64,000 bases of DNA, from the sequence record PV763136.1, one strand, 5' to 3'. Below the pieces are notes generated by a model that was not told where the DNA came from, did no database searches, and worked only from the letters and a program-made list of their open reading frames with translations. Positions 37,353 through 39,639 of this stretch are shown in pieces (positions within the stretch are counted from its first letter, which is position 1; every line of letters starts with the position of its first letter). The position numbers and the translations under genes were made by a program. The stretch comes from Escherichia phage vB_EcoM_YN3.

Positions 37353-37623
37353 TTGTCATTTTACATTCTTGAAATTTTAACACAAGACGGTGATTGTGTC
37401 TAGTGTCTAAAAAGATTTTTTCAGCCATCAGGCACACGGTATAACCGTCCATCTTGTTGACAACAAAATCTCCAGGGTAAGGGAGAGTGTCCCCTGGGCT
37501 GGGAAAGCATAACCCGCTCAGAAAGGCATCATCGGTGGTGGACTTAATGGATTTCCACACACTATCTGCCTGAACATTCTCACCAACATAATATACACTA
37601 CCACATGACTTCATCATAGTCAA
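37345..37623 (-). CDS. Hypothetical protein (92 aa)
   Basis: ORF. Confidence 0.45.
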   Translation of the reverse strand: MTMMKSCGSVYYVGENVQADSVWKSIKSTTDDAFLSGLCFPSPGDTLPYPGDFVVNKMDGYTVCLMAEKIFLDTRHNHRLVLKFQECKMTIA

Positions 37624-38519
37624 ATCTCCGCGTAAATTAAACTGGAATCAGTATACTTCTTTAATGGGTAAATATCCTGTCCATAGATGCAATCATTAAA
37701 CACCTCATCTACCCAAAGGCTACACTTATATCCCATCATTTCTAAAACACCCATCTCTTCTTCGGTAAACTTATCACCGCTCTTGCAAGATGTCAATACC
37801 TCATTCTGTACTCTTGCTACCTCGAAGCGGTTATTGGCAATATCGCTATTGGCGATCAAATACTCACCTAGAGGGTGTGCGGCATTAAAGATGCACAGTG
37901 GACGGCTGACGTAATAGTCTCCGGGTGTATAAAAATTGTTGAGATCCTTCACCAGAACATTCTTATCAGTCACTTCATTTATAACATCATGCATATCGCA
38001 CATCTTTATATGTTTGAGGATTCCATCCCCCATCACAAAATAAAAACTTGCTGAGACACTCTCGGCATAGATCTTACTAGATCCGTTGTAGTTGTATTTT
38101 ACTCGGATGCTAACGGGGGTTTTTCCTGTCGCGTTAGCCATCATCCAAAGAAATGGAAGCTCATACTTCTCCTCTGAGGAAACAAAAGGTGAGGTAGCCA
38201 GAGATCGAAAACCTCCAGAGAAGTTGAAAGTTACAGAACCGCTCCGGCGGTATGATACCGCGTATTCTACTTTTATATCGACGTACCCATTGGAATAGGT
38301 GTGTCCTTCATTATCTAAATATGTCCACTTATCAGACCCAGATACCAATCTACGCTCAATAACCTTCATCACTACAGGAATTAGTGGGTTGGTACAAACC
38401 GCTTTTGAAGTAGCTTTATCATCCAAAGCCTCGTAAATTGCAGAAAGGATATCGCCTGCTGAGAGATTGGTTGTGATATCTTGTTTCCACCGAGTGCTAA
38501 AGCTGTTAAGATTTGCCAT
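37620..38519 (-). CDS. Hypothetical protein (299 aa from internal ATG; track gives GTG start at 38561)
   Basis: AGGAG RBS precedes ATG at 38519; no recognisable motifs. Confidence 0.5.
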   Translation of the reverse strand: MANLNSFSTRWKQDITTNLSAGDILSAIYEALDDKATSKAVCTNPLIPVVMKVIERRLVSGSDKWTYLDNEGHTYSNGYVDIKVEYAVSYRRSGSVTFNFSGGFRSLATSPFVSSEEKYELPFLWMMANATGKTPVSIRVKYNYNGSSKIYAESVSASFYFVMGDGILKHIKMCDMHDVINEVTDKNVLVKDLNNFYTPGDYYVSRPLCIFNAAHPLGEYLIANSDIANNRFEVARVQNEVLTSCKSGDKFTEEEMGVLEMMGYKCSLWVDEVFNDCIYGQDIYPLKKYTDSSLIYAEI

Positions 38520-38559
38520 GATTAAGTACTCCTGTGTTCGTTTTCTTTCGAATGGGTGC

Positions 38560-38588
38560 ACTATATCGTGGATTTAGGGTAAAGTCAA
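38560..38588 (-). promoter_or_regulatory. Sigma70-like promoter (TTGACT-N17-TATAGT), divergent partner of the plus-strand promoter
   Basis: Hexamers read on minus strand upstream of 38519. Confidence 0.5.
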
Positions 38589-38601
38589 CACGTTTTTGAG
38601 G

Positions 38602-38630
38602 TTGACATCTGTTGAGGCACTTGATAAGAT
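38602..38630 (+). promoter_or_regulatory. Sigma70-like promoter (TTGACA-N17-TAAGAT) for the plus-strand operon
   Basis: Lies inside the TTG-started track ORF, supporting the downstream ATG at 38659 as true start. Confidence 0.5.
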
Positions 38631-38658
38631 TTCTTCACCTACAGAGCACAAGAGACAA

Positions 38659-39639
38659 CTCATGAATCTTGAAAAATATTATACACCAGAAGAGTTAGAG
38701 CGCCTGCTCAAAAAATATAGACGCAAACAGAATAATGCACGGAAACGGGATATAGAGTTCAACCTGTCATGGGAAGAATACCTCCTATTTGGTAAAAAAC
38801 TTTTAGGAGATGGAGTGTGCGATTACACCCTTATACCTTTTGACATGCACACAGATGAAAACGGGCTGGGAAATCCTTTCTATCCATCTCTGGAGCGGAT
38901 AGATGATGAAGGTCCTTACTCAATTGATAATTGTTGTGTGGTGGGATTGAGGTGCAACGCTCTGAAGGACTGTCTGGTAGATAAAAAGACTGCAATCTTG
39001 ATAAAAGATAAAACTGATCGAAAAATTGTCCAGCAGATGATGCTCCACCTGAGCGAAGAGCGTATGGAGAAATTGAAAGGTGATTATACTTTTGAAGATT
39101 TCATCTTGCAATACGGGACAGAAGAAGATAAACTAGCACTATTTGACGAAGAGGAGGAAGATATGTCACCAATGCAGGACTTTAAAAATTTCATGGCTGA
39201 TCGTGCAGCCAACAAACACATTTCAGACATCGTAAACGAGACTGTGACAGAAGAAATTGAAGAACAGAACTCTGAAGAGGAAAAAGATCCTCAGGAGGTC
39301 GAAGAGGATATTACAGAAGAAGTTCCTGCACTGCCTGATGATATTGAGATTGCTAAGGCTTACACTTTCTATTGTCAAACGTTCTACGATGCAGGTATGA
39401 AAGTTGATCTGTCGTTCAGCCAATTTAAGAGTTCGTATATTCGCAAATGCTGTGCTTTAACTGGTGAACGTCTCGGAGCTGGACTTAAACCACTGTTGGT
39501 GACCGACTGGAATAAAGGTTTCACTAAAGGAAACTTTATGGTAGTATCTCCAATTATGGAGAAAGCTATGACAGATCTTATGAAGACCACCCGCATGACA
39601 ATGACCGAGTTGGCAGGTATTTTCAAACACGTTAAATAA
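38659..39639 (+). CDS. HNH_3/AP2-like domain protein with acidic linker; catalytic His apparently replaced
   Basis: ERIDDEGPYSIDNCCVVGLRCNALK resembles the HNH_3 pattern DHID...N..NL......N with R in place of H; Glu/Asp-rich central region. Confidence 0.45.
   Translation, partial: LMNLEKYYTPEELERLLKKYRRKQNNARKRDIEFNLSWEEYLLFGKKLLGDGVCDYTLIPFDMHTDENGLGNPFYPSLERIDDEGPYSIDNCCVVGLRCNALKDCLVDKKTAILIKDKTDRKIVQQMMLHLSEERMEKLKGDYTFEDFILQYGTEEDKLALFDEEEEDMSPMQDFKNFMADRAANKHISDIVNETVTEEIEEQNSEEEKDPQEVEEDITEEVPALPDDIEIAKAYTFYCQTFYDAGMKVDLSFSQFKSSYIRKCCALTGERLGAGLKPLLVTDWNKGFTKGNFMVVSPIMEKAMTDLMKTTRMTMTELAGIFKHVK

Follow-up and report, generated by a model that had tools for sequence, protein, structure and literature searches.

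The closest described counterpart of the locus treated here is that of phage rV5, the genes of which form four transcription units (genes 10-1-238-164, 11-26, 27-81 and 82-163; PMC3606486, Kropinski et al. 2013), with bidirectional promoters reported between genes 10 and 11. We analyzed a stretch of 64,000 nucleotides from Escherichia phage vB_EcoM_YN3 (sequence record PV763136.1; the whole stretch is referred to below as the window), and in particular a divergent gene pair lying near 38.6 kb together with the promoter region that the two genes share. The region 37000-40200 is 96-97% identical at the nucleotide level to more than 100 Vequintavirus (rV5-like) coliphage genomes (e.g., MaxBurger, ECML-10 and BP9), and by this similarity the pair is the rV5 gp10 (299 aa, minus strand)/gp11 (325 aa, plus strand) locus. 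Both the locus, which more than 100 sequenced phages possess, and its promoters have been published for rV5 before; as a locus it is unremarkable, and the useful part of the analysis is a re-reading of the gp11 protein.

Two characterized proteins bear on gp11. The first is Srd of phage T4, which, according to papers citing Qi et al. 2015, binds the N-terminal half of RNase E and speeds host mRNA decay (PMC4980113, PMC7430671, PMC13232886). The second is the endonuclease PacI, described in three papers as lacking the general-base His, the role of which is taken by a Tyr of the omega-loop, and as having Asp and Asn for the ligands of its single metal ion (PMC5714182, PMC4081073, PMC3384342). 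In the classification of Jablonska et al. 2017, PacI forms His-Me finger group 20 with proteins of Paramecium bursaria chlorella virus and Pandoravirus (PMC5714182). We propose, with a probability of roughly 0.6, that gp11 is an early Srd-type host-takeover factor with a PacI-type N-terminal domain, encoded at the point where two early units dependent on the host RNA polymerase diverge. Placing the Srd family beside PacI appears to be a new assignment: none of the papers searched names Srd together with "His-Me finger", and the two that name it together with HNH are a matter of phage characterization and transcriptomics.

gp11, the Srd family and PacI

The plus-strand open reading frame (ORF) ends at 39639, and alignments with homologs back the ATG at 38662 as its start (325 aa). 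An alternative TTG start at 38596 (347 aa) falls upstream of the predicted promoter, which makes the longer form doubtful; distant homologs do not back it either, and it is probably an annotation artefact. Many gp11 orthologs in the databases are given as 346-347 aa, beginning at a TTG upstream of the -35 element.

The database labels of gp11 vary widely ("anti-sigma factor", "anti-termination protein", "HNH endonuclease", "type II restriction endonuclease" or hypothetical). Searched against PHROGs, gp11 matched phrog_3118 ("HNH endonuclease") at 6.6e-110 and, more weakly, phrog_3322 (endonuclease), phrog_4592 ("decoy of host sigma70"), phrog_1035 ("endonuclease VII") and phrog_1400 ("Srd anti-sigma factor"). 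BLASTP of gp11 against T4 Srd (NP_049634) gave an E value of 4e-7 (residues 8-143), and T4 Srd in turn matched phrog_3118 at 1.5e-16, aligned through about position 169 of the profile. Homologs of gp11 occur throughout the Vequintavirinae, in Aeromonas and Vibrio phages, and in metagenomes (one metagenomic protein, 98% identical to gp11, carries the NCBI name "type II restriction endonuclease"). By sequence homology, gp11 is clearly a member of the T4 Srd family.

The AlphaFold2 (AF2) model of gp11, built from a 27-sequence alignment, has a mean predicted local distance difference test (pLDDT) score of 85.9 and shows two confident domains and a disordered stretch (residues 191-215). The N-terminal domain contains a beta-beta-alpha unit (strand beta1 75-79, omega-loop 80-90, strand beta2 91-95 and alpha helix 96-107), within which the peptide ERIDDEGPYSIDNCCVVGLRCN occupies residues 78-99. 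A profile of 21 N-terminal domains, T4 Srd included, found PacI as its best match in the PDB (E 0.0031), with the profile stretch "pSLeRidskkgYsidNvcvvskraNalkd" opposite "LGVDRSDSFEGYSPQNARLACFICNRIKSN" of PacI; a single-sequence PDB search with gp11 returned only noise. In this alignment the gp11 residues E78-R79-x6-Y86-x3-N90-x8-N99-x2-K102 are spaced identically to D92-R93-x6-Y100-x3-N104-x8-N113-x2-K116 of PacI. Across 27 homologs with 23-98% identity, in a family that includes T4 Srd, R79, Y86, N90 and N99 are invariant and K102 almost so, while position 78 always holds E or D; the T4 Srd counterparts of the signature are E64, R65, Y71, N75 and N85. The position of the usual general-base His is occupied by Arg, R79 standing opposite PacI R93 and Y86 opposite PacI Y100. 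We infer from the alignment that the ligand roles in PacI belong to D92 and N113, which would assign them to E78 and N99 in gp11. A PacI fragment also matched phrog_1035, phrog_3322 and phrog_3118. A fold search of BFVD returned phage "anti-sigma factor" proteins and giant-virus HNH proteins (Pandoravirus, Medusavirus and Fadolivirus), and weaker structural matches of gp11 were the HNH domain of Cas9, McrA and Gme HNH.

As modelled, the N-terminal domain of gp11 is a PacI-type His-Me finger (beta-beta-alpha-metal) in which Arg replaces the general-base His. The first-pass annotation of this DNA, made from the sequence alone, had described an HNH_3/AP2-like segment with Arg in the place of His. 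The HNH-superfamily domain and the substitution were both recovered, but neither family was: gp11 had no match to Pfam HNH_3 (PF13392) or AP2 at E<=1, and there was none among the 21 N-terminal domain homologs, one of which reached HNH/HNH_5 at E ~0.02 in the Pfam scan. The same annotation had suggested a DNA-binding regulator derived from a homing endonuclease; that the domain is inactive for want of the His is a conclusion that the comparison does not bear out. PacI is active without this His and the same residues are conserved in the gp11 family; the loss of the His is therefore no evidence of lost catalysis, and gp11, to judge from its conserved residues, may still be an active nuclease.

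In the AF2 model, helices (residues 117-190) and an acidic linker (residues 191-225) connect the N-terminal domain to the C-terminal domain. The linker, already noticed in the first-pass annotation, contains 15 D/E and 1 K/R, has a pLDDT below 50 for residues 191-215, and varies in length and sequence among homologs. When the family profiles of the N- and C-terminal domains were aligned with each other by hhalign, the probability was 96.7% (E 3.3e-10, 80 columns), and in BLASTP residues 249-295 of gp11 also matched the N-terminal domain of T4 Srd (E 1e-3). The C-terminal domain has a second predicted beta-beta-alpha unit (strands 278-280 and 292-294, helix 297-310), in which only C264, D282 and N291 are retained, as counterparts of C53, D81 and N90; at the positions of E78, R79, Y86, N99 and K102 the C-terminal copy has L, V, F, K and T. 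Read from these alignments, the two domains stem from an internal duplication, and the C-terminal one has degenerated, losing the PacI-type residues. The fold is held in both copies, the PacI-type residues in the N-terminal copy alone; this speaks for function, and not folding, as the reason for their retention. Because PacI works as a homodimer, the C-terminal copy may, by analogy, act as a second, inactive subunit.

Promoters and layout of the two diverging units

A promoter scan found one sigma-70-type promoter on each strand of the intergenic region (Table 1), each matching the consensus at 10 of 12 hexamer positions, with 13 bp between the two -35 hexamers. The divergent pair with back-to-back promoters about 14 bp apart, as the first-pass annotation had described it, was thus found again. 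In a 4-kb scan there were 11 promoter-like sites against 8.2 +/- 2.5 expected, a total not above chance; in the whole window there were 54 sites matching at least 10/12 against 17.8 +/- 3.4 in first-order Markov shuffles, a threefold enrichment. In the early regions the strand of these sites tracks the gene strand almost perfectly (minus left of 38.6 kb, plus at 38.6-45 kb), and the early units seem to carry many internal host-type promoters. Many of the window's matches of at least 10/12 carry a perfect TTGACA.

All four hexamers of the divergent pair are kept in six Vequintavirus genomes, with variable adjoining bases. The relative L010 (about 50-60% protein identity; its gp10 is 48% identical) has back-to-back -35 elements in the arrangement TGTCAA-12 nt-TTGACA. 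In PVP-SE1 and KpS8, TTGACA-17-GATAAT lies upstream of the Srd-like gene and is annotated as a promoter in PVP-SE1, and the leftward promoter of these two phages is an 8/12 match that was read by eye and is weaker evidence. We regard the two promoters as credible because of the window-wide enrichment, the conservation of the hexamers and their recurrence in relatives; as far as the sequence goes, they are a divergent sigma-70 pair with correct orientation, 17-bp spacers and conservation.

The proximity of the two promoters had led to a suggestion of co-regulation. A search of the intergenic region for operator-like repeats shared between them gave only short, weak matches, and the inverted repeat that is present is a product of the two opposed -35 hexamers themselves. 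What can be kept of the suggestion is that both promoters are of the early, host RNA polymerase type; about 40 others alike lie in the early regions of the window and no operator-like repeat is shared between the two, so that "co-regulation" amounts only to two host-type early promoters diverging. A literature search for Vequintavirus transcriptomics, transcription start sites or RNA sequencing gave nothing usable.

The ORFs of the window lie on the minus strand up to 38.5 kb, on the plus strand at 38.6-45.3 kb, and then on the minus strand again with the structural genes; the GC skew reverses at 38 kb, only as the change of gene orientation predicts. In all Vequintavirinae records inspected, and also in phages more distantly related, gp11 keeps a fixed syntenic position as the first gene of its presumably early unit. 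In PVP-SE1, KpS8 and L010 the Srd-like gene comes first past the divergent intergenic region, and likewise in the distant L012 (23% identity).

What gp11 may do

In the mechanism that we propose, the two back-to-back sigma-70-type promoters would drive the early units diverging at the locus with the host RNA polymerase, and gp11 would serve in host takeover by acting on nucleic acid as soon as infection has begun. Its homology with T4 Srd suggests that, jointly with RNase E, it would speed up the breakdown of host mRNAs; its N-terminal domain would supply nucleic-acid binding and possibly cleavage of its own, with the omega-loop Tyr, the acidic residue and the Asn forming the catalytic or metal site. 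We have moderate confidence, from sequence comparison, that both genes are early and that gp11 has a part in host takeover with nucleic acid as its target, and low confidence, by analogy, that it works via RNase E like T4 Srd or through a nuclease activity of its own.

Several observations weigh against this proposal. The identity to T4 Srd is about 24% and limited to the N-terminal domain and the helices that follow it, and T4 Srd lacks the second domain, which makes the transfer of function uncertain. The scores are modest (E 0.003 for the profile against PacI, and 0.025 and above for Foldseek), and the Pfam and NCBIfam scans of gp11 gave nothing relevant, with no Pfam model matching. The two Cys4 zinc sites by which PacI is stabilized are not kept: C53 alone is invariant, Thr stands in place of the second Cys of the CxxC, and C91, C92 and C98 are variable in the gp11 family and absent from T4 Srd. 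Without both zinc sites, the N-terminal domain could be a binding module only. The reported effect of T4 Srd, moreover, is ascribed to stimulation of RNase E and not to nuclease activity of Srd itself (PMC4980113, PMC7430671). As to gp10, no positive statement can be made, its structure model being unreliable.

The alternative closest to the first-pass annotation is that the HNH-like domain is catalytically dead (His to Arg) and that gp11 is a sequence-specific DNA-binding transcription regulator comparable to the MH1 domain of SMAD, which we consider quite unlikely. Inactive, DNA-binding-only His-Me fingers do exist (Smad MH1; PMC5714182), and in gp11 the canonical His is absent and the zinc sites of PacI are not conserved; yet PacI, without the same His, is active, and its D/E, Y and N are kept in gp11 at identical spacing, whereas they are gone from the sister C-terminal domain, which is subject to the same constraints of fold. 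The position as first early gene would suit a regulator, and a switch from early to late genes was a speculation of the rV5 authors (PMC3606486), but the adjacent promoter region is free of operator-like repeats. The characterized homolog also points elsewhere: T4 Srd acts on RNA decay and is reported to stimulate RNase E (PMC4980113, PMC7430671).

A free-standing selfish nuclease, that is, a homing endonuclease or phage-borne restriction enzyme cutting competitor or host DNA and unrelated to RNA decay of the Srd type, is in our estimate distinctly improbable. The PacI-like fold with its intact PacI-type site would fit such an enzyme, as would the PHROG label "HNH endonuclease" and the NCBI name of the 98%-identical protein, and PacI homologs of giant viruses have been proposed as viral restriction enzymes (PMC5714182). 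However, homing endonucleases are distributed patchily, whereas gp11 keeps a fixed syntenic place as first gene; a degenerate extra domain and an acidic linker are conserved alongside the fold, and the homology to T4 Srd is clear. The homing endonuclease label in particular is contradicted by the fixed synteny in every relative inspected, including the phage with 23% identity.

Least probable is that gp11 shuts off host transcription by titrating sigma or the core RNA polymerase, as an anti-sigma factor or a decoy of sigma-70/sigma-S: many relatives are annotated as "anti-sigma factor", phrog_4592 and phrog_1400 are matched and 228-IEIAKAYT resembles sigma-70 region 2.2 (ISIAKKYT), but against E. 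coli RpoD the best BLASTP E value is 1.2 and the hhalign probability of the family profile 0.3%, neither gp11 nor T4 Srd matches a Pfam sigma-70 region, and the label derives from a "postulated decoy" note on T4 Srd, while later Srd work points to RNase E. The sole sigma-like stretch found, residues 228-235 (window 39343-39366), lies in the first helix of the C-terminal domain, where the family consensus is DVxIAxxYAxF, and is not significant (8 of 16 residues, E 1.2).

Returning to the Srd-type host-takeover factor, the proposal has a bolder form, namely that Srd-family proteins (T4 Srd, rV5 gp11 and many phage relatives) are active PacI-type Tyr nucleases and not sigma decoys or passive adaptors; we hold this to be unlikely. 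The ends left by His-Me finger nucleases carry a 5'-phosphate, and substrates with a 5'-monophosphate are those that RNase E prefers, so that cleavage of the Srd type could, speculatively, feed host mRNAs to RNase E. If Srd proteins do cleave host transcripts, the way in which Srd stimulates RNase E would have a concrete explanation. For the conflicting labels of the family, the outcome is that no regulatory label is supported and that the family, T4 Srd included, is set beside PacI. Among HNH enzymes, PacI alone is known to dispense with the catalytic His, and this placement makes the way in which Srd speeds up host mRNA decay testable.

gp10, neighboring features and known systems

The minus-strand ORF starts at the ATG at 38519, with GGAG ahead of the start, and its product had been described as having no recognizable motifs, which agrees with the Pfam and NCBIfam scans of gp10, in which no family was found. 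It matched phrog_12338 (function unknown) over its full length. Among cultured phages, gp10 was found only in Vequintavirus (117 records), and when the family profile of gp10 was run exhaustively with HMMER against 1.84 billion representatives, only 2 cluster representatives came back, too few for a deeper alignment. The AF2 model, built from 5 sequences, has a pLDDT of 43.8, too low for comparison with other folds, GT-B included. To judge from its sequence and position, gp10 is a genus-restricted protein without a recognizable family and presumably early.

Orthologs of gp10 are labelled "putative alpha 1-3 fucosyltransferase" in Vequintavirus records. The phmmer match to FUT9 is marginal (E 1.3e-3, 138 residues), the FucT motif is not conserved there, FUT9 disappears at E<=10 when a six-member family profile is used, and there is no match to Pfam Glyco_transf_10 at E<=5 in 6 family members. 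On this sequence evidence gp10 is probably not a fucosyltransferase; the label is unsupported and, widespread as it is, should go. The positional counterparts of gp10 in PVP-SE1 (gp219) and KpS8 (gp104), which belong to phrog_10920, have nothing in common with it beyond a C-terminal module of about 55 residues, ...EE(L/M)xx(L/M)E(M/A)xG(Y/L)KxxLW(V/L)D... (hhalign 91%, E 9e-7). The module lies at residues ~236-291 of gp10 (window 37620-37800; counterparts at L004 2840-3868 and L005 2869-3861) and, on sequence similarity, may be a common interaction motif. The label "thymidylate kinase" of phrog_10920 has no Pfam support.

Table 1. Positions of the genes, promoters, gp11 domains and hairpin in the window.
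Feature	Position	Strand	Evidence
gp10-like coding sequence, 299 aa, first gene of leftward, presumably early unit	37620..38519	-	ORF, GGAG ribosome-binding site
sigma-70-type promoter, leftward unit	38560..38588	-	TTGACT-17-TATAGT, conserved hexamers, annotated as promoter in phage Gotham record
sigma-70-type promoter with extended -10, rightward unit	38602..38630	+	TTGACA-17-TAAGAT, TG upstream
gp11-like coding sequence, 325 aa plus stop, Srd family, first gene of rightward, presumably early unit	38662..39639	+	
Predicted N-terminal PacI-type His-Me finger domain, residues 1-110	38662..38991	+	
Helical middle region, residues 111-190	38992..39231	+	AF2 helices 117-190
Predicted disordered acidic linker, residues 191-225	39232..39336	+	pLDDT, composition
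Putative C-terminal degenerate duplicate of N-terminal domain, residues 226-325	39337..39636	+	hhalign, BLASTP, AF2
GC-rich hairpin AGGGGCC-AAT-GGCCCCT, between gp11 and DUF2201/VWA gene	39644..39660	+	scan, folding energy

In the short gap past the gp11 stop lies a hairpin with a perfect 7-bp GC-rich stem. The 56-nt stretch 39630-39685 with this hairpin folds at -19.5 kcal/mol (z -3.3 against shuffles), and the first ATG (39652) of the next ORF is overlapped by the hairpin, which may serve in attenuation or RNA stability. In relatives that ORF is annotated with a coding sequence some 21 nt shorter (1461 nt in MaxBurger); its start would then be near 39673.

A gene for a MoxR-like AAA+ ATPase (34837-36021, minus strand) and the gene downstream of gp11, encoding DUF2201_N (putative metallopeptidase) and DUF2201 (VWA-like) domains (39652-41133, plus strand), flank the divergent promoters. 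MoxR ATPases and VWA proteins are usually partners, and the split arrangement is likewise found in PVP-SE1, KpS8 and L010. The VWA protein family, phrog_1314, is labelled "HNH endonuclease", at odds with the Pfam result. In addition, 16 GenBank records of "Campylobacter phage" (MG0656xx, e.g., MG065654, MG065672 and MG065690; host Campylobacter jejuni) are 92-99% identical to E. coli Vequintavirus genomes across the locus, which looks like mislabelling or contamination.

Compared with known systems, gp10 has one marginal single-sequence similarity to the GT10 alpha-1,3-fucosyltransferases (FUT9, PDB 8d0o), with neither the motif nor a profile match. For gp11, an AP2 domain is absent, and the superfamily fold is common to it and the canonical HNH families (Pfam HNH, HNH_3, HNH_5 and Endonuclease_7), from which it differs in having no Pfam match at E<=1 and no catalytic His. 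rV5 has the same gp10 and gp11 genes at about 96% identity, with a unit layout (10-1-238-164 leftward, 11-26 rightward) that agrees with that of the window and no substantive difference in the locus; the fold, the PacI-type residues and the internal duplication are not described in the rV5 paper. T4 Srd is an early gene in a host-takeover region and has a homologous N-terminal domain with a common SLER-x-D...GY...N...N motif, but it comprises 248 aa with no second domain detected and no acidic linker, is ~24% identical to gp11, and is the protein for which RNase E binding is known. Structurally, gp11 is matched best by PacI (PDB 3ldy/3m7k, His-Me finger group 20), a 142-aa homodimer with two Cys4 zinc sites that cuts TTAATTAA, whereas gp11 lacks the zinc sites and would carry its degenerate second copy within the same molecule, and common to both is the spacing D/E-R-x6-Y-x3-N-x8-N-x2-K.

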